From an uncultured virus (IMG/VR IMGVR_UViG_3300032931_000857) (lineage: Duplodnaviria > Heunggongvirae > Uroviricota > Caudoviricetes): DNA of 64,000 nt. Made by a program: the position numbers and the translations under genes. Shown here piece by piece: positions 7,746-62,100 of this stretch. Below the pieces are notes generated by a model, which was not told the DNA's origin, did no database searches, and saw only the letters and a program-made list of their open reading frames with translations. Numbering within the stretch: position 1 is the stretch's first letter; every line of letters begins with the position of its first letter. The stretch lies in the IMG/VR virus record IMGVR_UViG_3300032931_000857; one strand, 5' to 3'.

Positions 7746-7775
7746 TTAAATTTAAAAAAATAATTATATAATTAA

Positions 7776-7812
7776 TAAAAGGTTCGTGTGTTTATATACA
7801 CGAACCTTTTAT
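7776..7812 (+). terminator. Hairpin/terminator
   Basis: aaaaggttcgtgt..acacgaacctttt. Confidence 0.6.
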
Positions 7813-8719
7813 TTATGTTATTAATTTGTAAACAATTAAGGATATTAATATGACTTGCAAAAAAATAGAGACTATTTTAGTTAAAATTGTAGAAGTAAAA
7901 ACTAAATCAAAAACAGTATGTGCTATTGATAGAGACGACTGTGACGGTGAGGACAAAAATTGTCCTTATAGAGAAGATGAGCCTAACACTCGTGCTCTTA
8001 ATGAAGAGTGCGAACGGTACGCTAATGTAAAAAAGCTTACAGACGTACAACAACTGCAAGCAAAAATTCGCGCTATTGCAGATAGGCTTGAAATTTCGTA
8101 TCGTACCGCTGATCCTATGGCGGTAAATAATGCCGTCAACGAACTGCGCGAACTATCAGACGTTTATCAACCGTTATAAACAATTTGCACTCGCAAAACT
8201 TATTTATAAGCGAACATAAGAAAGGAAAGGAAAATGAATATAATAGACAAATCTGGTGAAATTACCACCATTGAAGATATACAGGAATCAATTGGTGCAA
8301 TAACAAATTTTATGAAAAATGATTTGATAAAACTACCATCGTTGGCAGTATATTCGTTAACAATCAGACGGTGTTTAATGGAATATTTAGCAATAAGAAA
8401 GAGTGCGCCCGCAGAAAGTAATGTTTTAAATCTTTAATTTATAGGCGGCAATATGAGAGCAGGTTCGGTTTTGTTATTTATCTTTTTGCTTATTGGAAGT
8501 ATCACTGCGATAATAAACATCCGTGATATTGCCTCTGACATTAAGGTAATTAAAAACACATCTTACAACAAAAAAAGTACGCCATGTTCGTGTCCAGATA
8601 CTGTTTACATTCATGACACAATTTATACTCGTGCGTGGACTTGTTTTCCTAAGCGGTAGACACGGCGTACATTTGTTATACGTTGGTTAACATTTTAAAA
8701 TCACTAAAAGGATTATTAT

Positions 8720-9037
8720 ATGCCCGATAAGATAAAAAAATGTCCATTTTGCGGAGGTATTGCCAGTATTAAACATAAACGATACAAGGGAACATTACAC
8801 AGATGCAATGGATTTGGTTATTGGGGAAATAAAGATAAAGTGAAAATATTATGGTGGGTGGGATGTTTTAACAAAGGTTGTTCTATTAAACCAAGTGCAT
8901 ACGGAGATAAAGATGAAGCAATAAAAAATTGGAATAATCGGGCTGATACTTTGGAAGGTGATTTTAAAACGTCAACCAACACCAAAAGTTTTCAATGTCC
9001 GGGTGAAGTGGTTGGCGTAACACTAAAAACGTTTTGA
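8720..9037 (+). CDS. Lar-like restriction alleviation protein
   Basis: KKCPFCGG...C..KGC...DEAIKNWNNRA. Confidence 0.7.
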   Translation: MPDKIKKCPFCGGIASIKHKRYKGTLHRCNGFGYWGNKDKVKILWWVGCFNKGCSIKPSAYGDKDEAIKNWNNRADTLEGDFKTSTNTKSFQCPGEVVGVTLKTF

Positions 9038-10221
9038 ATCCGTTGTTCAAAATAACTGACGAGCCTAATTTGTAGTCCGCTAATCTTGCAAAGGAGCATT
9101 TATTATGCGCAAAGAGTTTCAGATGACACCGAAAGAACTGAAAGACATTATGGAGGCATGTTGCCCCGTCCCGATGATTATGTTGCAGTGCGGAACACCA
9201 TCTTCCCCTCAAGAAAACGCGAATAGTGCGTGGAGGTCATTGGCGGCAAAATACGGTTTTAATTGGGAGTCAGTTCGACCGGTATCAGGAAAAGATAGTC
9301 ATTATTTCACAGCTGAGAGCGCGGCAGAACTGGTGGAGTTGCCAGTTACTTCGCACAATAAATAAAGTGTGTTCGTTTTACATAAGGAGAAACAAAATGA
9401 AATTATGTGATAATGATTGTAATCATTGTCAAATTATCAGGCACGAAAACTCTCGTATGGTTACGTTTATTCTCAACAGTCTGTTTGAAAAATTTGGTGA
9501 TGAAGTTTACTCGGTAGTTCAAAGTGCGTGTCCGAATTTGACTTGTTGCTTTGATTGTCGTATTGACGATTTTTGTCATGTTGAGAGTTGTGAAATAGCG
9601 GCTGCGGCGGAAGAAAAATATGGAAAGCCAACTGCATAGTCTACAACAACCGAAACACAAAATATAAATTTTATCGAAATGTTTTTATGACGCGATATTT
9701 TATAACTTTTAAAATAGTCCGAAATTTTTCATTAGGTTTTACAATTTATAGTCCGAAATATAATGGGTGGATAACTTTTGATATTAATTTTATGTATTTT
9801 TCTTTATGTTTTGATTGTAAAGGAAAGGTATTTTTTGGAATTCAAAATTATTGGAAAGTAAGAGATATTAAATTAAAACGACAGTACATTTATCACACAT
9901 TGTACAAAATTATTATGCTTTTTAAATTATAATGAACGGCTGAAAATTGGAGTTTTTATGAATGTTATGCAAATGCAAAAATTAAGTAGTTTAAGTCAAG
10001 AGCAACTTTCAAAAATTGAAACAGGATATCAAATTGCATATGTTCCTGGCCATGCAATAGATGAATTTAATATAATAGAAGATTCGTATATTGAATATGG
10101 CTTTGTAACTTCAAAATCATGTTCAGGATATTTCTGTAGATATTGGATAAAAGGAAAAGAAGGAATAAAGTTAAGAACAACTGCAAACAGTGAATCTACT
10201 AATTTATATGATCTCTTTAAA

Positions 10222-10344
10222 TATGAAAAAGTAGATCAAGATATAATTAATAAATTTTTAAAAAAAATTTTAGTAAATAATGTTATTAAAATTTAAATAT
10301 GATATCAAAATGTATAAAACATTTTTAACGTGCAAATACGAACC
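10222..10344 (+). repeat. 123-bp direct repeat, copy 1 (copy 2 at 12519-12641)
   Basis: Near-identical sequence tatgaaaaagta...caaatacgaacc. Confidence 0.9.
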
Positions 10345-12101
10345 GGATTGGACTCCTTTTTCAATAGGTGAACATTCGAGATGTAATGGAGAGTGTAAAT
10401 TTCATTTGCCTAAATTAATATCTTTGAAATTGTAAAGTGTGGGAGAAGAAAGAAGAGAAAATAAAATTCTTTAATACAAACAAAAAAAATAAATTAAGGA
10501 ACTATATAGAAAGGTTGTTATGTATGGCAGAAAATTTCGAGCAGTGGTTTAACGATAAGTATGGCAAAAATCAAAGTTACGGTCGTGGCGTTGCATTAGA
10601 AGCGTGGAATTACATCTTAAGCAAACAAAGTACGCCATTTATCAAGTGCGACGATTGTGATGAAATAGCAGAGTATCATTATTGTGCCGATTGTATGTCT
10701 AATCATCGTGACTAAACAGCGTGTATTTGTCAAACGTTGTATGGAAGTCTTATTTATTCTAATAAACATCAACCGTGTTGGAAAGGAAAATATGAAATTA
10801 TGGATTACATTTGAATTTGACACAGACAAAGAAACATTATTAAAAGGTAAATCAAAAAAAGAAATAGTTGCATTTGTAGAAAATGAATGTAACGATGAAG
10901 TTTTTTCTGGTGTTATTAAATTAGTAAAAATACAAGACGCAAGGTGTGACGTGGAAGAAAAACCGAACGGTAAAAATAAATTTTATAGGAGGTTCGATTT
11001 GAGATTGAGAAAAGAAATGAAACTTGTTAAGAAAGGAAAATGCATTAGTGGAGATATAGTTGTATCGAAAGAATTTGGTGTTGACGCAGTTGTAAATTTG
11101 ATAGGTTTATCTGTATCAAAATGTAATAGTCTTGGTTATAAGGTATATCGCAAACATCCGAAAATTATAACTGGTAGTTCCTCATCTGACAATCCACAAG
11201 ATAAAAAAATACCTTGGTTTCGTTCCAAAAAAAAGATTGGAAATTTATTATGAAATGCAGAAATTGTCAAAAAGAGATAGATCATTTATGGAATGATATG
11301 TGGGAATTGTGTGATGAGTGTGGATATCGGTATGACATCGAGACTCAACGCAGTCTCGATGGAAATTGTCAATCTATCTTACGACAATTACATATTAAAA
11401 TATATGAAATTATTAGTAGATGGGCAATAGATAATAAAATAAATGTAACTCCTGGACAAAAGAGATTGTTGGAGTTACTAGTGGAAGAAAAATTTAAATT
11501 CATCAACCAAACACAAATGGATGCCATTGCAGACCTAAACGATGCATTGGCTTATTTGCGTTGTTTACAAGTAGATAACGCAGTTAATCATATCAAAGCA
11601 GCTATTACTTGTCTACAACAGCACCATTTGTAAAGCATTGGAGAAATAAATTTTTTTATTAGGAGGAGCAAATGTCAAACTGCTATTCATGCTTAGAAAA
11701 TTTTAATAATTTAATAGAAATTTTGGTTGCTCAAAGAGATGAATGCGCCTCTAAAGCTGCGGAATTGGCCGTTACAACAGTCAACAACGCAAGGGAAAAA
11801 TTCTTGCCTGATTGCTGTGATGAATCTAAGCAAGATTTGCGTGATTGGATTGAGTGCGGCTTTAAGTTCTGTCCGTGGTGTGGGCGAGAACTTCGCCCTA
11901 TTACGTAACCGTTGAAGAAATAAATTTTTTTATGGAATTATTATATAAAATTCTAATTTGATAGACCTTCACAAGAAAGTAATAATTTGTGGCTTAATAT
12001 CACGAAAACGGTTGTGTTTTGGACGTAACCGTATTAGAGAATAATAGTACTACCGAGTTGTATGTCTATACGTTACTAATTAACAAAATTATTAAATCTT
12101 C

Positions 12102-12479
12102 ATGAATTTTAATATTTTGAAAGAAAGGAATTGGAACTTTATGCCAATATTTATGTTACCATCGAAAGCAGGGACCTGCCAAGTATGTGCAGCTTTACAC
12201 AATTCCACACAACCACATAATGCACAATCATTACCATATCAGATATGGTTTCAATCAACATATGGACGTAGTGTTACATGGGCTGATGCGGTTGCTCATT
12301 GCTCTGCTGAAGTTTCATCTACTTGGAAAAATGAGTTACTTAAAATAGGCAAATGGTCTGAACCAAAAAGTGGTATTCCTATTGTAACAGTTGATAAAAA
12401 TGAAATAGTTCCTAAACTGAAACCGTTACCTAATATGGAACCAACGATTGTGGATATAAAATCAAAATCAAATTTATAA
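12102..12479 (+). CDS. Hypothetical Cys/His-containing protein
   Basis: CQVCAALH...PHNAQS...TWADAVAHC. Confidence 0.6.
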   Translation: MNFNILKERNWNFMPIFMLPSKAGTCQVCAALHNSTQPHNAQSLPYQIWFQSTYGRSVTWADAVAHCSAEVSSTWKNELLKIGKWSEPKSGIPIVTVDKNEIVPKLKPLPNMEPTIVDIKSKSNL

Positions 12480-12729
12480 AATAAATAGAAATAATTATAC
12501 GTTATTATTATGAAAAATTATGAAAAAGTAAATCAAGATATAATTAATAAATTTTTAAAAAAAATTTTAGTAAATAATGTTATTAAAATTTAAATAGGAT
12601 GTCAAAATGTATAAAACATGTTTAACGTGCAAATACGAACCTTTTATTTATGTTATTAATTTACAAACAATTAAAGGTATTAAGTTTTTTCGCAATAATC
12701 ATAGTATTTTATAGAAAAGAATGGTTGTT

Positions 12730-13882
12730 TATGATTCAAAAACGTGCTTATAAATTTCGCATATATCCTAACAACACCCAAAAGATCTTGTTATCAAAGA
12801 CCTTTGGGTGTGTCAGGTATATATGGAATCAATTTGTAGAATCTTTTAATAAAAAAGAAAATCCTAAATCTACTACTCTATTCAGAAAAGAGATTGAATG
12901 GTTAAAAGAGGTTTCTTCTGCAGCTATTCAACAGAAAGAGATAGATTTTAAAGAATTTAAAAAACAGTTCTTCTCTAAAAAAAGAAAGAAGAAGATAGGA
13001 AAACCTGTATTTAAAAAGAAGTTTCAAAAGCAATCTTATAGATTGCCTAATCAGAAATTTGTTCTGAAAGATAATAAGATCAGACTTGAGAAAATAGGAT
13101 GGATCTCTATTATTCTCGATAGAGAAATACCTTCATGTAAATTCTTATCAGTAACAATATCTAAAGATCATGTTGGAGATTATTACGCTTCGATCCTTGT
13201 AGAGGAAGAGATTCAAGAACTTCCTAAAACAAATCGATCAGTAGGAATAGATTTAGGATTAAAAGATTTTATTACTACTTCTGATGGATTTCAGATAAAA
13301 ATGTTCAATGAAAGTGAGAGCCAAGCTAGAATTGAACACTTATCCATACATCTATCTAGGAAAACAGTAGGATCTTTAAGATTCAAAAAGATCAAAAGAA
13401 AGATAGCTAAAATTCATCGTAAAATTGCAAGAAGGAGAGAATGGTTGCATCATAACATCTCTTCTTATCTTGTAAATAATTATGATGAGATAGTTATAGA
13501 AGATCTTAATGTCCAGGGGATGATGAGTAATCATAAATTAGCTAGAAGCATAGGAAATCAAGGATGGTCTACTTTAGGCAATCAGATTGAGTACAAATCA
13601 AGATGGTATGGAAAGAAAGTAAAGAAAGTAAGCCGATGGTTTCCTTCCTCTAAATTATGTAATAAGTGCGGAAATGTTAAGAAAGATCTTTCTTTATCTG
13701 AAAGAATCTATGAATGTGAATGTGGTAATAAAATGAATAGAGATCTAAATGCATCTCTAAACATTTTATCCGCAGGAGTTAATACGGATCAACGATCATC
13801 GATGGAATGTAAGGCTTTTAATGATCAGGAGAGATTAAGAGCAATTCCAAGTGAAATGATTAATTTAATAGGAATTGAATAA
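12730..13882 (+). CDS. tnpB: RNA-guided endonuclease TnpB
   Basis: RAYKFRIYP HTH start, RuvC GIDLG / VIEDL / RDLNA, Zn ribbon CNKC..CEC; start at MIQKRAY. Confidence 0.92.
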
Positions 13883-15090
13883 ATTTCTATAAAAAGTGTA
13901 ACTATTATGTTAATACAATTAAGTATTAACAATTAAAAGGATTTTTTTTATGTTTAAGTTAATAATTATTAATAAGAAAAAAGAAAAATTAATTAAAAAA
14001 GCCTTTTTAATTTATGGGCAGATAAGTCCCATAAATAAAAAGTATTTTTCTTCAAATGATTTTAATTTCCTGATAGGGAAATTATCATTTTGGTTTTTAA
14101 AGAAAAATGGAAGCTCATGCTTTATTCAATAGCTTCCTATAAGAATGAATTTTTATTCATTCTTTTTTTTATTATGTAAAACTTTGGAGGCTGCATATGA
14201 TATTCATTATATTATTTCTGTTATTAATTCCAATATTTGGTTTTGGAGTATGGTGCGGTTATTTGATATTTACGCAACAGTACTCTAAATATGGCGCCCA
14301 TTCTGTATCATATAACCAGAAAAGTATGCAATGCTGTTCCGAATGCGGTTATGCACTTGGATCAAAAAATCAGTGTTTAAATAGAAATTGTGTACGGTTA
14401 GGAAAGTAACACTGCATACATTTGCTAAATTGTGTGAAATAAACAGCGCTTTTAATTTATAGGCGCACTGGAGGAAAAATGAAAGTATTAGTTTACACGG
14501 TCGCTATCATATTAACCATTGCCATCGTCGGTTTCATTTCTTATGGAGGTTGGCAAATTAGTCGTAAAAAGTGCGTTTGCTTCGCACATGCGGAGTACCG
14601 CACGTCGCACATTTATCGGACGTTGGGCGAAATGCCCGTTTTGAAAACAATTTATTATAGGCCGCGCGGGAAAGGAAAAAATCATGGGATGCGTTGTAAC
14701 AATCGAAAGTCCACATAAGTCATTTTTAAAGAAACTTACTCACTACCTATTTCATTGTCCGAGTTTTTGGAGTATAAAACCGAGGTATCACTGTTCAAAG
14801 TGCGGAGCTGGGTTTCGGTGCTATTGGGATGCAAACGATATTGAAGGTCACGGTATAGATATTTGTAACCGATGCGCAAAGAAAATTGAAGAGGCGCGGC
14901 AGAACATTAAAGAAGCACCGGGTCGCAGAAGCTATCGTTGCAAAGTAGCATTCAATGCTGGAAGGGATTTCAAACATGGCGGCAAAAAATTTTAGGAGTC
15001 GCCAAAAACAATTTACAACACAGAAAGGCTATCATTTTGAAAGTATCTAGTAGTGAAAATATTGTAGTTCAAAACGACAGCCCTTTCATT

Positions 15091-15154
15091 CCGTTGTACA
15101 AAATTTCAGTTGGTAACGAAAAAATTTATTTAATATAAGGAAAAAAAATGAAAC
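15091..15154 (+). repeat. 64-bp direct repeat, copy 1 (copy 2 at 15493-15556)
   Basis: ccgttgtac..aaggaaaaaaaatgaaac with 2 mismatches. Confidence 0.9.
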
Positions 15155-15549
15155 TCAAAAAGTATGCAATGCTGTTCCGACTGTATACATTTGCTAAATT
15201 AACTTCAATTTTGCTCTTAAATTTTTTTGAAAGGAGTTTACCATGCTTTCTGGTAAAGAGGCACTATCAATCATAGAATCTGAATTTCCGCAATTGAACT
15301 ATGGTGTAAAATTAAAGGACGCATGGCAAGCTCTGAAACGTGTTGTAGAAATTGCCAACAGCGCACAGCAGCTAAAGAATGAAATTGACGCTTTTGCAAA
15401 CGAACTTTCTGATATTCATATTAAGGATTGTGATATAGCGAATGTTAAAGATTTGGTTGAGCGAATGCGGCAACTATCAGCCATTTAGCGAACCGTTGTA
15501 CGAAATTTCAGTTGGTAATGAAAAAATTTATTTAATATAAGGAAAAAAA

Positions 15550-15819
15550 ATGAAACCCGGATATGATGATATTTTTACTATAGAAAAAAAAATATTAGAA
15601 TATACAAAATGTACAGAAATTAATACCATAGACATTATTTTATCTATGATGTATTTCCAAGAATATAAAGGAATAAAAGCATTTTATGATCTGAATACTT
15701 TTATTGATTTGGCAGAAAAAAATCAAATGGATAAAAATTTTATAATTGATATCATTATTCATGATCTTAATTGTAATAAAATAGATTCACTAAAATCAAA
15801 ATCATATATCAAAGGATAA
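15550..15819 (+). CDS. Hypothetical protein
   Basis: AAGGA RBS. Confidence 0.55.
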   Translation: MKPGYDDIFTIEKKILEYTKCTEINTIDIILSMMYFQEYKGIKAFYDLNTFIDLAEKNQMDKNFIIDIIIHDLNCNKIDSLKSKSYIKG

Positions 15820-15823
15820 AAGT

Positions 15824-16285
15824 ATGGAAGAAAAAAAATATTTTAATTGTTATGCATGCGATTTGAACAAAATATGTTCAATAAGAAAAGCAACAAATGA
15901 ACTATTGGAACTAATAATTAAAAAAGAAATATCAGAACAATTTCCAATTAATTATATTCCAGAGTTTATTGCTTCAATTTGTAAATACTATTCTAATAAT
16001 AATAAAAAAAAAGAGGATAATGAAATAGTTAATGCAGAATTTACAAGTGAATGGAGCGACGGAATAATAATTAAAACACCGTGTAAATATAACAAAAAAC
16101 TTGGACATCCGTTTGAAGTAACAAGTTATGATTATAATAGCAAAGGATGTTTAGTGGAACAGTATATTACTTATTATGATTTAGAAGCAAAAGAATATAT
16201 AGTTAAAAATATTTGTCAAGAATGCAATGAATACATTATTGAAAATGGTAAGTGCTTCGGAAATTGTTCAGCAATATTGGATTGA
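15824..16285 (+). CDS. Hypothetical Cys-containing protein
   Basis: CYAC, CQEC motifs; RBS. Confidence 0.55.
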   Translation: MEEKKYFNCYACDLNKICSIRKATNELLELIIKKEISEQFPINYIPEFIASICKYYSNNNKKKEDNEIVNAEFTSEWSDGIIIKTPCKYNKKLGHPFEVTSYDYNSKGCLVEQYITYYDLEAKEYIVKNICQECNEYIIENGKCFGNCSAILD

Positions 16286-17461
16286 AAATTTATAAATGAA
16301 TTACATAGCAGTAAGATATGATTGAAATTTAGTGACGTACAAGAAATTCTTAAAACGCCGTCCACAAATAAAAAAAAATATTAATCCTTTAGCGTACATT
16401 TGAGGTATAGTTTATGCTTAAAGACGACTGTGAAATTGTAGAGGGATATTTTGATTTTGTATGCATTCGCCCATCAATTAGAGATGCATGGAATCGCATA
16501 AAGGATTTTGTTAAAGTGCAAAACAAGACGCACAACAAAGTTATGAATACCATTTGTCCTAAGTGTAGCACCGATACTTCTCACGAGGAGTAAATAGTTC
16601 TTCGGTCGTGTGTCGGTTGTGGTTTAACATACGCGGTCAAACAGAACCCGTAATGCATATGAAAATATTAATCGGTGGTGCGTGTGCGAGATTTGTAGTG
16701 GCAGGTTAAAACTTAATTATAGCGGCTGAAAGTCCGTTCCTGCCCATACTGAATCATGCACCACCTTTACATTATTGTAGCAAATTTTACATGCACACAA
16801 CTCGCAAAGTACCACATTGAAACGATGGTACATTTGCGGAGTGTTGGTTGTAATTTGTAAATCTATTGATTTATAGGTTGCGCCAAAGAAAGGAATATAT
16901 GTTTAGATACGAACTTGAAAAATTAATTAATCAATATTCTATTGAAAACGGATCAAACACACCCGATTTTATGCTGGCAGGATTTTTGAATAGCTGTCTG
17001 GATGCTTTCGATCACGCTGTTCGTGAACGTGATAAATGGTATGGCGTTCACCTTTCTCCTGGCAACTCACATTTTGAAGATGCGCAACAGGATAATGTGG
17101 AAGAAAACAGCTCATCGCATAACACATCTATCCCAAAATTTCCTACTTGGGAGGAAGTTTACAAGTGGGCTATAGATAGTCATGGTTCACCTGATATTGA
17201 CCAAGGTAGGTACGCTATTCTCCGGGGTTGTTATGATTTTATAGCCGGAAACTTCGGGTTTAGATAATCAGTCGTTAATGATATTGGATTGAAAGTTTAA
17301 TTATATCGGGACTGTTTATATGTAACAAAAATCCTTATTATTACCGATGTAATAAGGTACTTTCAATTCATTTTATATTATTCATTATAAAAAATTATAA
17401 AATTACCAGATAGATATATTTTACTATTGGGTATTTTTTTAGTTATTAATTATTAAAATTT

Positions 17462-49140: not shown

Positions 49141-50328
49141 ATGCATGTGGGATTAGAAAATTATTGTAATAAAAAGAAACACTATATTTTTTTTCATGAT
49201 GATATGGATGGCATATACACATCAGCCATATTTATTAAATCTTTTATTGAAAATGACACTAAAAATTTTCCAATCAAATTATGCCCTGTCAAAACATCAA
49301 TGAGAGGAATTAAATTTAATTCATTTATTAAAGAAATCTGTTTAAAAAATATAAATCCAAATATTATAATCATTGATTACCAATACAACGATTTATGTAA
49401 TATATGGATTGATCATCATCAAAACAAAGAGTTCACCGATAAAACAACTAATGAATTAATAGAAATATATAATAAAAAACATATTATATACTCAATAGGT
49501 GAAAAATCCGCAACACGAGTTTTATATAATTATATAATAAAAAATCAATCAAATAAATTAGATGTAATCAACAATTTTATTGATGATATTAATATTATAG
49601 ATATGATTGATTCTGCAAATTATACTAATGTAAATTCTGTTTTTAATAGTTTACATCCATTAATGATTTTAAGAGCATACCTTGAAAATATGAAATTATA
49701 TATTGATAATACATATTGTCGTATAGTTGAAAATATAGTTAAATATGATTTTGATATTGATGATCTATTATTTTCGATGAATATAGATAATTCAGAAGTT
49801 TTAAATTTAAAAAAAAGAGCTTTAAAAATTGAAAAAAATATAGTTAAAAATATTAATGTAGGAATAATATACTGTAATTCATTATATGAATATCCTAGAT
49901 ATTCTGAATTTTTTGTCAATCAAGACCTTCCTTATTCTATTAGAATTATAAATCATGGAGAAGAATCTATTCATTGTGAAATAGGAGCTAATCCATGGGT
50001 TGAATTTAGATACGATCTTAATATTGGTAAATTTCTTTCAGATCTTTCATATCCTATATCAGGAGGTGGGCATAAAAAAGTTGGAGGAGCAATATTGAAA
50101 ATTGGTGATTTAGATAAATTTTTAAATCAAATAACAACTTATATAAATGAAGGAGAAGATATTAGTATGGAAAAATATTCAGTTGACAAAGAAGATTCAG
50201 TTGAAAAAAAAGCTAATGAAATAGTTAAACAAGCATCATCTGAAAATAAAGAAATCACTATTGATGACGCACGCGAACAAGCTGTTAAAAAAATAGATAA
50301 AAAGGAGACTGGAGATGTTCAAGGATAA
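49141..50328 (+). CDS. DHH/DHHA1 family phosphoesterase
   Basis: HDDMDG, IIIIDY, WIDHH, GGGHKKVGG. Confidence 0.85.
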   Translation: MHVGLENYCNKKKHYIFFHDDMDGIYTSAIFIKSFIENDTKNFPIKLCPVKTSMRGIKFNSFIKEICLKNINPNIIIIDYQYNDLCNIWIDHHQNKEFTDKTTNELIEIYNKKHIIYSIGEKSATRVLYNYIIKNQSNKLDVINNFIDDINIIDMIDSANYTNVNSVFNSLHPLMILRAYLENMKLYIDNTYCRIVENIVKYDFDIDDLLFSMNIDNSEVLNLKKRALKIEKNIVKNINVGIIYCNSLYEYPRYSEFFVNQDLPYSIRIINHGEESIHCEIGANPWVEFRYDLNIGKFLSDLSYPISGGGHKKVGGAILKIGDLDKFLNQITTYINEGEDISMEKYSVDKEDSVEKKANEIVKQASSENKEITIDDAREQAVKKIDKKETGDVQG

Positions 50329-51385
50329 TAGTAATTTCGACATTCAATACTTTATGAATTCATCAATAGATGAAATTGATGAAATCATTGCAAATAAAGA
50401 TAAACATATAAGAAGAATGAATATACCTAAAAGTGACGGATCGTTAAGAAGTATAATTGCTCCTGATAACAAATTAAAATATATACAAAAAAGTATTTAT
50501 TGGAAATTTCTAAAAAAATATAAACCAAGCGATGCAGCTCATGGATTTGTTAATAAGAGGGGCATTGTAACAAACGCAAGATTGCACGTAGGAGCAATGT
50601 CTTTAGGAAAGATAGATATAAAAAATTTTTTTGATTCAATATCTCAAGATCATTTAAAAAATTGTCTTTTTGGAAACAAAGTAATTTGTAGGTTTTGTAA
50701 ATTTTATGATAGAATGCTTGAAAATGGATGCAATCCGTCATTGTATCATAATAAATTAAAAGATTATGAATTTAAATGCGAAGAAATTAAAGCCGTATTT
50801 ATTCCTGAATATTGTATCGAAACAGGATACCAATCATTAATGACACGAGTAATTGATATCTGTACTTATAATGGATTTTGCGCTCAAGGATTTCCAACAT
50901 CACCAATTCTTGCAAACCTCATTATGAGAGGTTTTGATAAAAAATTACTTGAACATTGTGAAAAAAATAATATAATATACACCAGATACGCTGATGACTT
51001 AACTTTCTCCAGTAAAACTATTAATAAAATCGAACTTGAAAAACAAGTAAAAAATTTAGCATATCAACAATTGTGGGCTTACAAACTGCGACCCAATAAG
51101 AAAAAAACTAAATTTAAATCTAAATCTGGAAGACTCAAAACATGCGGAATAATAGTTAATGTAAAAACGTCAGTCCCCAGATACGATGTAAGAATTTTTA
51201 GAGCAAAAGTTCATAATGCAACAAAAAAAAATCCAGATCAAACTACTAAAAAAATATTAAGAAAATTAAAAGGATGGGCGTCATATTTAATGTCTATTGA
51301 TGCTTATCAAGGTAAAAAATATATGGAAAAATTAAAACAGTTTGAAAAAGAAAAATTTGGCCTTACGACAAAGGGGGCCAAATGA
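50315..51385 (+). CDS. Reverse transcriptase, retron-like
   Basis: IPKSDGSLRSI, AAHGF, NARLH (NAxxH), DIKNFFDSI, QGFPTSP, RYADDLTFS, TCGIIVN (VTG-like). Confidence 0.9.
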   Translation: MFKDNSNFDIQYFMNSSIDEIDEIIANKDKHIRRMNIPKSDGSLRSIIAPDNKLKYIQKSIYWKFLKKYKPSDAAHGFVNKRGIVTNARLHVGAMSLGKIDIKNFFDSISQDHLKNCLFGNKVICRFCKFYDRMLENGCNPSLYHNKLKDYEFKCEEIKAVFIPEYCIETGYQSLMTRVIDICTYNGFCAQGFPTSPILANLIMRGFDKKLLEHCEKNNIIYTRYADDLTFSSKTINKIELEKQVKNLAYQQLWAYKLRPNKKKTKFKSKSGRLKTCGIIVNVKTSVPRYDVRIFRAKVHNATKKNPDQTTKKILRKLKGWASYLMSIDAYQGKKYMEKLKQFEKEKFGLTTKGAK

Positions 51386-51867
51386 TTTTTGAAATATATA
51401 CAGACGGAGCATGTTCTGGAAACAGATTAAATAGCGAATGCAAAGGAGGATACGGATATATAATTATATTAAATTATAAAAAAATTATGAAAGGTGGTGG
51501 ATTCCGTATCAATGTAACAAATAATCAAATGGAATTGATTGCAGTAATAGGAAGTTTATTACGATTAAAAAAATTTTTACGGTCATCACAATCATTAATA
51601 AAAGATCATGATTGCATTATTAATAGCGATTCTCAGTATGTAACTGAAAATTGGAATGATTATATTATAGAATGGGCAAATAATGGTTGGAGAAAATCCA
51701 ATGGAAAAGCTTTATTAAATAAAAAATTGTGGAAAAAAATATATTCATTAGTTTTAGAATTTAAAACTGTTAAATTTAAATGGGTTGAAGGTCATGGGGA
51801 TGATAAAAATAATCAAGAAGTTGATCATATAGCAAAAGATTTCATTAAAAGAAGTCCACATGAATAA
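51382..51867 (+). CDS. rnhA: Ribonuclease HI
   Basis: YTDGACSGN, TNNQMEL, NSDSQY, WVEGH, NQEVD. Confidence 0.92.
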   Translation: MIFEIYTDGACSGNRLNSECKGGYGYIIILNYKKIMKGGGFRINVTNNQMELIAVIGSLLRLKKFLRSSQSLIKDHDCIINSDSQYVTENWNDYIIEWANNGWRKSNGKALLNKKLWKKIYSLVLEFKTVKFKWVEGHGDDKNNQEVDHIAKDFIKRSPHE

Positions 51868-56198: not shown

Positions 56199-59100
56199 TT
56201 ACTTATTTTTTCCATATTCCCCTGTAATAAGTTGAGTAATTGGATTTCCTACATTAGGATCAATAACACTTTTAAATCCCTGAGTTGTCCCTTCTTCAAG
56301 AACTTTTGCTATTCTATTATGTGCTAATCGTGAAATCCAATCTTCGCTTGTTTGAGCCTTTGCGCTTATTCCTGCAGGAGTTAAAAATGGTTCATGTTTA
56401 ATTTTATCTTTAAAAATATTTATTCTTTTAACTCCTTTATTACTTAAATCTTCAATAATATTATTTGTAATTTTAGTATTTTTTTTGTATATGCCATAAT
56501 TTTGAGATAAATGATCGCCTTCAGTATTTTCAATATCATCTTCTTTATTATTATTGTTATTATAATATTCTACAGTTGTTAATGGAGCAACATCATAAGG
56601 GGCGTATGTACTTGATCCTGGATGTAATATTCTTGTTGTATTCGTTATACCCCTAACAACAGTCTCGATATCTCTTGAATCAAGTTTTCCTTCATTAATA
56701 TTATTTATTTCTTTTACAAGAAATTTTTGAGCGTCTTTAAATCCTCTATATTTTAAAACATCATGCACACTTGTTGTTCCTGTTGAAATATTATCACCCA
56801 TAAATACTTTATCACCTTTTTTAACAAGCAGCTCAGTATTAGGATCTATATAATGAACGTCTTCTTTTTTATCATTTTGCAATACAACATCCCATCCGCC
56901 AATAGGAGATTTAATAATATTTTTTACTATCCCATCAATACTTGCAAGGGTTGATTTGTTAGGTATATTTGTAGTAAATCTTAAGACTCTTTCCAATACA
57001 TCAAATGCAGATCCAGTTTTTCCTGCGGCTACAGTTCCTCCTGTATGAAAAGCCTTCATAGCTAATTTTAATGAAGGTTCGGTTATTGTATGAGAGGAAA
57101 TAATTCCTATATTATCACCTATATTATGTAATTTTCCATCATAATCAGCTCCATAAGAATAACTTGAAAATCCATCACCTGGAGTTGGATCGGTAATAGG
57201 TGATTGTACAAATATATTTTTTACTTTATGACTGTTCAATTTATTTACAAGATCACTATCGACAAGATCATTTCTTTTTGCAAGAATTTTTCCATGAGTA
57301 TCTTTAACGTCTTTTGCCAAATATCTATTAATAATAGATTTCTTATCATCAATATTAAATTCAAAACCAACCGTATCGACAGGATCTTCACTGCTAATTC
57401 TTGTTTCATAAATAGAATTAGTAAGATCTTTTGTTAACCATCCTGGCTTAAACGATTGTACTGATTTCTGTATATTTCCACTTCTTGCCCCATGAGCTGC
57501 GGCCCAATATTGAGAAGTATTAAGTCCTTCAGAATAAGATTTAGTAATTGGAACAGGAACAGCGGCTCCATCTATATCCGTAACTATTCCAGGCATTAAT
57601 GCTATAGATGCAAAATTACTTATACCCTTACCTGCTCCTGATTTTAAACCAATACCAACCATAGTGTTTTCATCATAATCAGATTCTAATTTTTTAATAC
57701 CTTTTGATACCGCTTCATTAAATGACTTAACAATAGAAGAACTATCATCCTTACTAACATTTTTCCATGCATCAGACACTAATTTATCTTTAAATTTTTT
57801 ATCAATAATGGTATCTGATACTCCTAATGTCAATCCATAAGTTGTAACATAATTATTTCCAACATCTTTAATCTTGTCCGCAAGGGCAAGTGCCTGTTTT
57901 CCATTATATTTTTTTACTACATCACGAATCCATCCTTCGGTATTTTTGCTTGTTAATTCTATATTATATTTTTTCATATCATCAGGAACTATAGAATTGA
58001 TTTCATGCATACCAAATGGAGCCTTTATATTATTAATAGTCACATTGTCACCATAAGTAAATTTATTATTTTTAAAAGACTCACGAGCATCGTCTATATT
58101 ATTAAAAGATAAATTGGTTTCTTTTCCACCTTTACCTTTTGAGACAAGCCAACTTCCTGCAGTTATATCAAGAGATGGCTTATTAAGAACTGTATCATAA
58201 CCGGTTTTAAGCATACTGGCAGAGGGTTTCATTAATTCTGCCTCTTGTAAAGCTTTTGACGAAATAGGAACATGTAATTGAAATGTGTCTTGACAAATAA
58301 TACCATTATTTAACATAAACGTATATGAACCAGGAGCTGTTATATCATACATGGTAAGAAGTTCTTTATTTAATTCTATATTTTTAGCATATACCCATGT
58401 AATATTTTTATTATTAACTATTTCAATCCATCTATCATCCGCAATACCTTTAGGCAGTATAGTAATTATTTTAATAGCTGTTGGTCTTGATATACATCCA
58501 GAATTTACAGCATCATACATTGAACTATATAAGTTAGAATATTTATTTGATTTTATATGTAACCTGAATTTTATATACATATCATCACTAAAAGGAACCA
58601 TATCAAGTCTGGCAGCCATTGAAGCGGATGTTTCGCCACCTGTTGCTTGAAATTTTTCAAAAGCTTCTTTTTTATCAGGATTTATAAAATTAAGTTTTTT
58701 ATCAACAATAGTCTGGGTTGAAAATACAACAGTATACTCAACACATGTATCACGTTCAGAAGAAGTAATTGATGCTGAAATTCCAAGAGTTCGTGAAAGA
58801 GTTACTATTTCTTCCGCAAGACGTACAGACGTCGTAGAATACAATAATATATACTGTGATTTTTTACCTTGTGAATGGTTCCATGTAGACGTTCCATCCG
58901 TATCTATAAGACCGGATAGAAGGCCAAGACGAAACTCTTCTGAGGTAGACATAAAAAATATAGGAAGATGTTTGTTTCTAGCTAAATGACCAATCCAAAT
59001 TTTAATATTTTGTGCAAGAGAAATACTTGTTTTAGTGTGTTTTGTACTAAAACAATCATAACCCATAAATGAATGAGGAGAATCGATAGAATAAATTCCT

Positions 59101-62100
59101 ATATCTTCTTTCATCATTTTATTAATAGTATTATTAAATATTTTTTTTATTTCTGGATGAACAGTAGCCATACAAATATCAACATTATTAGAAATCCAAC
59201 CATTACCAATCATAATTCCAATAAAATGTCCAACTTCTCTTGTTAATTCAATTTCATCAATACATTTAATAGTATTTTTTCCAGTTATTAAATTAATATC
59301 ACTTTTTGAATAATCAATTAATGGAATTTTAAATAATGACGGTATTATATCAAGTTTTCTAAGTTTTGGAATAGCTTTTTTTAATAAATCTCTAGGAGAA
59401 ATTCTTTCAAGTTCAAATGTAATCATATTAAGTGCTATTGCACTTTGATCACTTGATAATATCAATTCATTTTTATCTGATAATTTTACAATATAATTAG
59501 TAAGATTCTTATGAATTGAAAATTGTGTAACAGGAACTTCTAAAAATTTATGAGTCTTACTATCTATTGTAAATATAGATACTCCATCAGGAACTTTATA
59601 TAATTCATTTCCATTATTTTGAATTTCACATGAATCTTTAATTCTTGGAAAATTCTCAATATTAATGTGAATAATAGACTTATCACCTATTATTACAGGA
59701 AGATTATTAAGACATGGCATATTAACCTCCAGCGATTTAAGTAAATAATACATTTGTTTGCTGGAATTAATATACATATTTTCACAATTAATGTCAAGAT
59801 CTTTTTTAAAAAAAAGTGAACCAAAATCTATTTTATCAAATTGTTCACATAAATCGTTTATTTTTAATGAGATATACAATCCACAAAAAATAGAATCTCC
59901 GTCAAAATCACCACCCATGTTTTCTACTACTGTTATGCCAGGAACTTCAATAGATTTGCCATCAGTTAATTTAGGTTTAAATGCAGTCATATTCCATCTA
60001 TGCAATGTAGGCGCCCTGTTAGCTATAACCAGTCTCTCGTCGCTTACAACCTGTAATGCTCTCTGATATATAGGATCATTATCCTTAATAAGTTTCTGAG
60101 CCTCAACGGGCTTATATCCCCACTCAACCATCTTCTTCATAATAAATGGCTGGAAAATTTTCCCAGCCATTATTTTGGGGATTCCCAATTCGTCACCGCC
60201 AAGTTCAGGGTTCAATATAATAGTCGATCTTCCAACCAAGTCCTGCCTGCGCTCAAGCACTTTATCCTGAAAAAAACCTTCCTTAGTTTGTTTTGTAGCG
60301 CCTCCATCAATCTGAGGAATAAATCCTTTCTTATTTTTTACTTTATGCAAATAAGACGTAGGATCTCCCATACCAACAACAGCCTTTAAATCATTATACA
60401 ATGCCCCTCTCGCTTCTGCAAGTTGTAAATTTTTTATATCTTCATTATCAATAGATTCATCTAAAGTTGTTTTCAAATTCTTTAATGCACTTGATGTATA
60501 AGCGGTTTGTTGATACAAATCATTAATATCAGATACAACAACAGTTCCTTCTGTTCCAATTTGAAATACAGGACGAAATTTTGAAGGAGTAACTAAAACA
60601 TTCGATATAATATAATCAGAAGGTTTCATATTGTTATCTTTAATCGATTTCAAATAACGAATTTTTTTATGTATCTTATTAAGTTCAGTAGGATTGGTTA
60701 TTGTTTTTGAATCTTCTTCAGCATTTTTAAGTTCATTTTTTACATTAATACGTTCAAGAAGAAGTTTAACTGCAGGCCCTCCTGATATAGAATTTGGAGA
60801 CCCAGGCTCAACAATTTTACCATTTGACTTATCTATAAATTTTTTTCCTATTAAAATATTATCTAAATGAGTAATAGGCATATCTAACAAATTTGCAGTT
60901 GCTGAAGTTGTTATAGGGTTCAATGTTGGTTCTGGAAGTTTAAAATAAGTGAAATTATTACCATATAAACCACCAGCTTTTACAGGATCAAATAATCCAT
61001 CTTTAATTGGAGCAAGATCCTTTTTACGATATGACAATTCAGGTCTGGTTATTTCTCCACTAGATATTTCAATAATATCTTTATCAGTCATAGGTTTTAA
61101 TGCAAACGTTTTTCCTTTTTGTTCAACATTAATTCCAGCCCCTGACATCATAGCCAACATCTTATCCCATGCAAATGATCTTTTAGGAGGAGGAAGGCTT
61201 TGTCCGGTTTCCATAGCCCTCCAATACTCATCATTTTTTTGACCTTTAATCTGAAACATTTCACGCAAATTCTCATTAGCTCCTCGTGCTAATAATGCAG
61301 CCATTTCCATTCTACCTAAATTTTTTCCTCCCGTTATACCGCCAGTAGCGGCCTGCTCATTAGCATCATAACTATCTTTATATCGAGCTGAAAATTTATG
61401 ATCAACAATATGTTCAAGTTTTAAAATATGAGCCGTGCCTGTAGCAATAGGATTTAATAATGGTTTTTTGGTCTCAGGATCAATTAAAATATCTTTATCT
61501 GACAATCCTTCTTTTTTTAACTCACTAATAATTTTACGAGAATTATCCTCTCCTGAAAAATTATTTATATCATAAGTTTTTCCTGTTTTACTTACTAATT
61601 TACCTACAGCAGCTTCAAGTAATTGAGATGTATTTATTCTATTTGAAACTCCTAAAGGACTCATTGTTAAATCAATTTTTTCTCCAGTTTCCAAATTATA
61701 AGGCATCTCATCGTCAGGAACAATTTTAGAAATGATATGTTTATTTCCATGCAATCCAGATATTTTATCAGCAACCTTTAACTGCTCTTCAGTCTTTATA
61801 TTAACAACTACATTATTTCCACTTTTAGTAACTTTTTTTACAACTCCTATTATATCTTTATCCCATAGCAAAGCATTATTAGACATATCTCTTTTTAATT
61901 GCTTGTCAAGCCTTCCTAAAATTATATCATCTGACGTTGGTGATTTTCTTTCAAGATGAGCAATAACAACATCGTCTCTTTCAACTGTCTCTCCAACTTT
62001 AATAACTCCGTCACTATCTAATTTTTTTGATTTATTTGATGGCAATACTTCAGGATAATATGCTTTAAATTTATCACGCGAAAAAACTCCATTAGAAGTT

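Follow-up and report, generated by a model that had tools for sequence, protein, structure and literature searches.

The window considered here, a 64,000-nucleotide (64-kb) stretch of an uncultured virus of the Caudoviricetes (IMG/VR record IMGVR_UViG_3300032931_000857), carries between positions 7850 and 17280 a hyperplastic array of small open reading frames (ORFs), interspersed with twelve imperfect palindromes of the form AAC..GTT (sites A to L, Table 1). The evidence supports, in outline, the reading of this region as an integrase-less, integron-like mobile cassette array with a new variant of the integron recombination site, attC. From one close relative to another, and from sample to sample, cassettes have been added, removed or exchanged for others; the sites of the array belong to a conserved family whose stems covary. 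A mechanism in which the sites fold as single strands and are recombined by a tyrosine recombinase is the explanation best supported at present, and we would give it a probability of roughly 0.55. An earlier interpretation made from the letters alone, the sequence-only reading, had proposed a gene-capture and shuffling platform; the site family, the fold and the exchange of cassettes bear this out, whereas the recombinase and the single-strand mechanism are parts that we can only infer.

Integrons have been treated as bacterial devices, and the published phage cases are small integrase-less clusters found with a model of bacterial attC sites. Such clusters of attC sites lacking integrases (CALINs) are described by Qi et al. 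in both temperate and virulent phages, with a minimum of two attC sites and with DNA methyltransferases among the cargo (Qi et al. 2023, PMC9892861). Classical attC sites measure about 57-141 bp and vary in their terminal structure. [quoted passage not shown] When the extrahelical bases are moved to the other arm, recombination is reported to shift to the other strand and box (Nivina 2016; Bouvier 2009).

As a generic observation, AAC..GTT palindromes are weak; as a sequence family they are strong. A pattern taken from site B matched two copies in the nearest related record, a viral contig of 164,446 bp with terminal repeats and rated 100% complete (G001), which has 61% of sampled words in common with the window. 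The same pattern also matched two unrelated viral contigs, G002 and G003, which are siphovirus-like (fraction of G plus C, GC, 0.46 and 0.50) and each have a row of sites behind small ORFs. A tighter pattern was found on at least 80 metagenome contigs (82 matches, 64 of them distinct), with the ACAAC box in all but 3, and an extended-core scan added nine viral contigs with at least two sites each. The metagenome contigs also carry phage genes, namely methyltransferases of three kinds, RusA, dUTPase, ribonucleotide reductase, lysozyme and YopX, and the family spans unrelated phage lineages with GC from 0.28 to 0.55. In one genome from each of 185,579 prokaryote species, neither the tighter pattern nor a right-arm-only pattern, both searched as exact patterns, gave any match, which sets these sites, with arms conserved in sequence across unrelated phages, apart from attC. 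The family thus appears to be large and, as far as these searches reach, limited to uncultured phages.

Sixty distinct metagenomic sites align cleanly, with AAC in 59 of the 60 (GTT was fixed by the search pattern). Partner positions are paired in 84.9% of cells, compared with 78.4% in shuffles, and cells in which both partners have changed number 119 against 52. The covariation score is 0.200 against 0.081 for shuffled alignments (0 of 500 reach it), and falls to 0.024-0.090 when the partners are slid. All three measures lie above each of the 500 shuffles and above all slid controls. Conservation of the family and covariation of its stems are therefore shown, and one structural model, in which changes compensate each other, accommodates the sites; this outcome speaks against refutation of the sequence-only reading. 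In the whole window, arm profiles built from the 60 sites matched both arms of B and D, the right arm of H and nothing else, and in the 164-kb G001 they matched only inside its array, with none elsewhere at E<1. Variable regions of diversity-generating retroelements and the ends of miniature inverted-repeat transposable elements or of IS200/IS605 elements were set aside as identities for the sites, because the site centres are mutually unrelated, the sites bound cassettes, and they occur in phages without such genes.

Exchange of whole cassettes is seen directly in comparisons with relatives. Against G001 the array region is a mosaic in which divergence begins after the GTTG of site B, a 122-nt site that is over its whole length 91% identical to sites on different genes in unrelated contigs; other variants also part company directly after this GTTG. 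The 360-bp cassette with a Lar-like restriction-alleviation gene is precisely missing from sequences L090 and L116 and from contigs of runs X1, X2 and X5, that is, from three of the four independent sediment-metagenome runs, which were compared through contigs only. In the empty joint of L090 and L116 the GTTG of site B is directly followed by the sequence that comes after the GTTG of site C, and only five letters fit either side. After site D, G001 has an extra cassette of 255 bp between two 16-nt copies ending in CGTTGT. In place of the 276-bp cassette that comes after site E, G001 has an unrelated one of 278 bp, and three different cassettes follow this site in the window, in G001 and in L090/X1/X2. 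A 626-bp stretch of the window is swapped for 270 bp in G001, with the right boundary at CGTTGTAC of site I, and a joint from 14429 to 15094 in runs X1 and X2 lies between two right cores. A single cassette start was seen after site C (X4), after site E (X1/X2/L090) and after a site in the unrelated L094. Gene order thus varies among relatives, which again speaks against refutation of the sequence-only reading, with whole cassettes present, absent or replaced and junctions at the GTT core.

The same point of exchange emerges from a wider comparison of 82 oriented loci, all against all, in which the ends of blocks of at least 88% identity gave 144 distinct internal 3' ends and 157 distinct 5' starts. 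Counted from the G of the right core, the 3' ends pile up at +2 to +5 (33) and +10 to +13 (26), and the 5' starts at -7 to -2 (52), where about 0.8 per position would be expected. The second pile of 3' ends reflects a GTTGTACGCAAT-like consensus common to many cassette starts. The homology breakpoints are thereby shown to bracket about 4 bases around the step between G and TT in the ORF-distal CGTTG core, which is also where integrons exchange their cassettes. At the left box of the 82 loci there was no pile of 3' ends and only a weak pile of 5' starts. In-frame domain shuffling at the left box was rejected, the phase of AAC being variable (N-N, Q-Q and others) and 3' breakpoints not piling up there; replication slippage was rejected on inference only, as a hairpin on the bottom strand would put the junctions at the other box.

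The strand that folds was assessed with 103 distinct breakpoint right cores, an unbiased set for which the best AAC-bearing partner was sought under symmetric rules. A complementary partner was found for 74 of the 103, compared with 3 of 309 when the left region was shuffled. In 44 sites outside the selected subfamily, the helices read on the ORF strand contain 74 A.C but 9 G.T juxtapositions; the excess of A.C corresponds to G.T wobbles on the antisense strand, which indicates that the strand antisense to the ORFs is probably the one favoured for folding, as in integrons. These 44 sites replaced a first wobble count on the pattern-selected subfamily, which was discarded because the pattern had fixed an A/C-rich left arm and so introduced a bias. 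An A.C juxtaposition is invariant in 60 of 60 subfamily sites and by itself cannot distinguish the strands.

The unpaired features are arranged differently from those of attC. In 40 of the 44 sites the right spacer is 2-4 nt longer than the left (typically 4-5 against 1-2 nt, where attC has 5-6 nt on each arm), and an unpaired base is found on the right, crossover-side arm in 24, on the left arm in 4 and on neither in 16; in the main subfamily it stands on the crossover-side arm every time (30 of 30). Both features, the unpaired base and the longer spacer, thus lie on the arm equivalent to R'-L', whereas attC has its extrahelical bases on R''-L''. The commonest boxes, (G/T)(C/T)ACAAC and GTTGT(A/G)C, are each one position off RYYYAAC/GTTRRRY, the right boxes GTTGTAC and GTTGTGC missing GTTRRRY by that one position. 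Since the unpaired features adjoin the crossover box, we have not filed the sites as classical attC; they look attC-like in the other respects tested and are best described as a mirrored variant of it. The phrase 'variant sites' in the sequence-only reading was apt, and a test of which arm bears the unpaired bases now says in what they vary.

We propose that a cassette begins with a short 5' leader that includes a ribosome-binding site, continues with a single small ORF and closes with an attC-like site. This site would be an imperfect palindrome with outer boxes nnACAAC and GTTGTnn, an inner stem that varies in sequence while staying complementary, and a centre of 11 to about 110 nt that often encodes the last ~27 residues of the ORF. 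In many cassettes about 35 nt separate GTTG from the start codon, and these contain the ribosome-binding site, which leaves no room for a promoter. We infer that these sites, like the attC sites of integrons, may fold as single-stranded DNA and in this form be the substrates of a tyrosine recombinase from the Xer/IntI clade. This enzyme could be supplied in trans by the host, a co-infecting phage or another element; some other phages with such arrays encode an Xer/IntI-like enzyme beside the array. The cargo, a Lar-like anti-restriction protein here and DNA methyltransferases in relatives, would form an exchangeable tool-kit for early infection and counter-defence.

The likeness to integrons and CALINs is considerable: small, co-oriented and mostly promoterless cassettes, each ending in an AAC/GTT palindrome of about 50-155 nt with a variable centre, and several co-oriented sites without an integrase nearby. 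DNA methyltransferases in related arrays recall the cargo listed by Qi et al. (PMC9892861), whose minimum of two sites per CALIN (Qi et al. 2023) compares with about 12 in the window. Unlike in attC, the site centre often codes for a cysteine-rich protein tail. Among the titles and abstracts listed by full-text literature searches, none described an attC-like family with mirrored unpaired features or a phage-restricted cassette pool; the supplements of Qi et al. may list similar phages.

The search for a recombinase gave mixed results. A tyrosine recombinase scored over the cut-off in 2 of 12 array-bearing viral records, G007 and G008, and no match to PF00589 was found in G002-G006 or G009-G014. 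The enzyme of G007 (271 residues) belongs to the Xer/IntI clade and has a SAM-like N-terminal domain; its best NCBIfam models are XerA/integron-integrase (5e-36) and integron integrase (3e-23), both below their cut-offs, and it scores 82.8 bits with the integron integrase model, where the cut-off is 265. Its gene lies 1.3 kb from the nearest of 5 sites that share the core and the spacer asymmetry of the family, and adjoins genes for RtcB and terminase. Sequence L157 encodes a homologue 76% identical to the G007 enzyme and keeps the recombinase, terminase and structural genes, while its site-bearing side shares no DNA similarity with that of G007. Such a layout is suggestive of a capture platform, for which it would be expected, and a link between this enzyme and the sites is likewise suggested. 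The ORFs of G007 (L140/L156 944-6418) run opposite to the site orientation of the window, so gene orientation relative to the site is not fixed; its cargo includes two cytosine-5 methyltransferase genes, and the gene that adjoins the recombinase is an RtcB ligase.

Several observations weigh against the proposed mechanism and are gathered here. No tyrosine recombinase is present among the ORFs of the window or in a six-frame PF00589 search of the complete G001, so that the statement of the sequence-only reading that no integrase is visible holds for both, and both differ from a complete integron, where intI, coding for a tyrosine recombinase with an IntI-specific extra segment, and attI stand next to the array, in having no intI. 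A Pfam scan of 112 ORFs of G001 found IS607- and IS200/IS605-type transposases and TnpB genes and no tyrosine recombinase, the 87 ORFs of at least 140 residues on metagenome loci include no integrase, and at a BLASTP threshold of 1e-4 no non-structural protein and no recombinase is common to G001, G002 and G003. Ten of the 12 array-bearing records have no recombinase over the cut-off (8 of the 12 records are less than 60% complete), and the enzymes of G007 and G008 have an identity of only 24% over 154 residues; that of G008 adjoins a DnaC/IstB-like gene and may be an ordinary integrase. The unpaired features stand on the arm that in classical attC directs recombination to the other box. Other differences from G001 lie away from sites, namely insertions of 77 and 150 bp, the 1138-bp block (whose junction is an 8-nt microhomology away from any site) and a TnpB element; several junctions in the window are plain microhomology or fall within ORFs, and 73 of the 144 3' ends, about half of the breakpoints, are away from cores, so other processes act too. 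The 12-nt GTTGTACGCAAT-like consensus beyond GTT could serve short-homology recombination. Finally, the runs were seen as assembled contigs, which are unable to show circles or rare variants, and no circles, strand-specific intermediates or enzyme activity were observed.

The main rival explanation is short-homology recombination at regulatory hairpins, which we regard as unlikely. It takes the palindromes as primarily regulatory or processing elements and the shuffling as a by-product of general or short-homology phage recombination, as has been proposed for the cassettes of T4-type phages. The elements known there as PeSLs combine a strong sigma-70-like promoter with a compact terminator stem-loop and exchange by homologous recombination, in the accounts available (PMC2839356, PMC4122927). 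The setting is as described for PeSLs, a hyperplastic region of small ORFans in a large virulent phage (PMC2839356, PMC4122927), with repeated structured motifs and with indels and replacements ending at the motifs (Arbiol et al. 2010; Comeau et al. 2014). The elements themselves differ: between 7000 and 18500, sigma-70-type promoters are not enriched (70 against 67 +/- 8.7), nor are intrinsic terminators (5 against 4.2 +/- 2.2), and no terminator call coincides with a site; the only strong terminator is the hairpin at 7774-7813, outside the array. The stems are long-range rather than compact, overlap the ends of ORFs and enclose up to about 110 nt of coding sequence, and the 74 A.C against 9 G.T juxtapositions favour folding of the strand that is not the transcript. 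The promoter and terminator counts, the short leaders and the strand evidence together separate the sites from T4-type PeSLs. As for the exchange itself, the lack of a dedicated recombinase in the window and in G001 is what general recombination would give, many other junctions in the array region are microhomology events, and conserved stretches of 12-16 nt around the core could provide the homology, witness the 16-nt duplication in G001 and the pile at +10 to +13. The joint that lacks the Lar-like cassette, however, shares only 5 letters, breakpoints concentrate at one box only, and the family is found in unrelated lineages with GC of 0.28-0.55, whereas PeSLs are reported, in the sources cited, within T4-type phages.

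It is improbable that the sites are simply the conserved 3' ends of a gene family, comprising a linker, a zinc-ribbon tail and a 3' untranslated element, with their similarity due to paralogy or domain shuffling. Selection on the peptide is indeed suggested by a linker read in one frame, by tails that keep their cysteines and by a set tail length and stop position. Synonymous positions of the left arm are nonetheless fixed and covary with the non-coding right arm, sites I and K and the short sites of G002 have the same architecture while being non-coding, the tails are joined to unrelated bodies, and the cassette junctions are at the core, outside the coding sequence. A gene-family origin would account for the tails and not for the exchange, and may hold in addition to the recombinase mechanism. 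That the palindromes arose by chance in an AT-rich genome and were over-read by eye is very improbable: seven of the twelve sites do fold no better than shuffles and comparable palindromes occur elsewhere in the window, yet at least 80 independent contigs, covarying stems, profile matches confined to the array and breakpoints enriched at the core refute chance for the family as a whole. For individual weak sites, such as A, L or the left arm assigned to J, it may hold.

Individually, several of the twelve sites are indeed weak. The sequence-only reading had listed at least 12 ORF-terminal palindromes bounded by AAC and GTT; these are present at the positions given, although H is without its left AAC and G without its right GTT. 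By whole-site folding energy, five of the twelve, namely E, F, H, I and K, do better than dinucleotide shuffles (z <= -2.3 on the antisense strand), and the other seven, A, B, C, D, G, J and L, do not. The antisense strand is the more stable in 7 of the 12. Site K, singled out as the clearest case (16796-16846), is real, with a z of -3.3 on either strand and a bulged base. By eye, the better sites show ACAAC, a 1-3-nt spacer, a stem starting with CAAA, a variable centre, a complementary stem that has one extra base before TTTG, a 4-7-nt spacer and CGTTG. Lengths range over 50-157 nt in the window and 46-152 nt among the validated sites, and the centres cannot be aligned. Homologues of the arms in unrelated contigs were found with blastn-short for A (2 contigs), B (52), D (49), H (4), J (13) and K (1), and none for C, E, F, G, I or L, in a contig set itself picked by one subfamily pattern. 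Profiles seeded with the 12 window sites proved weak, and those from the 60 metagenomic sites took their place. With a threshold of 9.5, a structure-only scan retained 5 of the 45 cores that lie within 7850-17300 and also 6 of the 277 beyond these limits. Generic scans for AAC..GTT hairpins, by energy or by structure, separated the array poorly from the rest of the AT-rich window and were dropped in favour of family profiles.

In the main subfamily the site is also the end of a protein. The left arm is always read as ..N-K-Q-S-T/M-P in one frame, and in 55 of the 60 sites the variable centre codes for a tail of 25-30 residues (about 27), with at least three cysteines in 56 and exactly four in 33. 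The stop codon stands 9-16 nt before the ACATTTG motif of the right arm in 57 of the 60, in agreement with the earlier statement that ORFs enter the sites and end within the right arm or shortly before it. The tails differ greatly from each other and their bodies are unrelated, from ORFs with membrane helices in the window to a Dam methylase in L119. As the tails keep their cysteines despite this diversity, and on unrelated proteins, the site centre would also act as a small functional domain; sites I and K, alike in shape but non-coding, imply that a site can do without a tail. In the window, sites B, D and G go with the tail-coding pattern of the main subfamily.

A broader picture can be put forward tentatively, at somewhat less than even odds. 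Unrelated uncultured phages would share a phage-native gene-capture system of mini-cassettes with mirror-image attC-like sites, with a short Xer/IntI-like recombinase adjoining the array or with arrays used in trans; the sites would double as four-cysteine tails of about 27 residues, and cassettes or bare tailed sites would move between genomes across the GC range of 0.28-0.55, with prokaryotes lacking the family. If the proposed reading is true, large virulent phages maintain arrays of considerable size whose early genes can be swapped, anti-restriction and methylase genes among them, and phage 'hyperplastic regions' gain a concrete mechanism. The exchange sites would then depart from attC in the very feature that sets the choice of strand and box and would offer a natural experiment on the way in which attC geometry directs recombination; the mirrored geometry predicts sharply which strand and box the cognate recombinase should cut. 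The site family would also be a marker for new counter-defence genes.

Table 1. Sites, cassettes and other features of the array region, in window coordinates.
Feature	Position	Strand	Remarks
Intrinsic-terminator-like hairpin	7774..7813	+	strong; 18-pair stem; immediately 5' of array
Cassette array	7850..17280	+	~25 small same-strand ORFs, mostly of no known family
Site A	8047..8176	+	weak fold; left-arm homologues in 2 unrelated contigs
Site B	8565..8685	+	main subfamily; codes for Cys-rich ORF tail
360-bp cassette	8686..9045	+	Lar-like ORF 8720-9037 and site C (8976-9045)
Site D	10624..10739	+	main subfamily
Site E	11505..11640	+	z -3.6
276-bp cassette	11636..11911	+	ORF 11672-11908 and site F (11783-11914)
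TnpB-only IS605-family insertion	12523..13895	+	ORF 12650-13882; interrupts array
Site G	14314..14432	+	degenerate right core TTGTG
Site H	14565..14625	+	right arm fits main-subfamily profile; left AAC missing
Site I	15017..15096	+	non-coding; best fold; z -4.3 antisense, -2.4 sense
Collapsed copy of site G	15155..15200	+	arms joined, centre lost; fused behind ATGAAAC
Site J	15357..15498	+	weak fold; right arm in common with 13 unrelated contigs
1138-bp block	16321..17458	+	contains sites K and L; absent in G001
Site K	16797..16846	+	minimal, non-coding; 11-nt loop; bulged A on right arm
Site L	17121..17277	+	weak; GTTA core

The array stands out from its flanks in composition (a GC mosaic of 0.28-0.35 against 0.23-0.26), and the Lar-like protein is the only product of an array ORF with a recognisable family. 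The TnpB insertion is outside the cassette system and specific to this phage; it is absent from G001 and from contigs of all four metagenome runs; its left flank is chimeric, with 12515-12641 repeating 10219-10344 and 12635-12683 repeating 7800-7848. A 64-nt direct repeat, 97% identical (15091-15154 and 15493-15556), consists of a right core, a leader and ATGAAAC, and after the first copy ATGAAAC runs into the remnant of site G whose arms have collapsed together. A further fusion, seen in contig L118 and in three runs, links the start of ORF 15824 at an AAC with site G's left arm (joint 16077 to 14316).

The phage itself is about 164 kb, low in GC (~0.23-0.36 in the window) and virulent-looking. 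The window encodes a large terminase, an RNA ligase, an SLT lysozyme and a reverse transcriptase, together with a 2583-residue fused RNA-polymerase protein (ORF 56199-63950, minus strand) in which beta-like and beta'-like domains are joined and which has a LAGLIDADG/homing-endonuclease insertion at residues ~1663-1742 that resembles an intein. The reverse transcriptase (356 residues, 50315-51385, plus strand) lies within a small same-strand group with 49141-50328 and 51382-51867, which is possibly a diversity-generating retroelement; the copy in G001 adjoins an RNase H gene. Neither positions 1-25000 of the window nor site B matched any isolated phage by megablast or blastn. A tRNA scan of the window found none, and Rfam 15, which contains no attC model, gave no match in it at gathering thresholds.

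Of the four TnpB genes in G001, one goes with a serine recombinase of the IS607 type and another with a Y1 transposase of the IS200 type; these insertion elements (L035 357-1451 and 12014-13646; L042 12793-14493) are an unusual load for a phage. Its protein motifs include a Fibrobacter-succinogenes-major-domain, a Listeria-Bacteroides-repeat and a pilin N-methylation motif (L043 11197-11775, L041 3783-7835, L038 9562-9966), which hint at a host in the Fibrobacterota/Bacteroidota group. A Bacteroidota-type promoter reading of TACATTTG was set aside; most sites are without this sequence, and the genes have Shine-Dalgarno sequences. A different motif, TT(T)ATAGG(C)G, recurs 10-20 nt 5' of the ribosome-binding sites of many cassettes, in the window at 8187-8200, 8440-8452, 14455-14466, 14650-14662 and 16865-16876 and also in cassettes of G001 and G002, and may be a promoter or start-site element of some polymerase or sigma factor.

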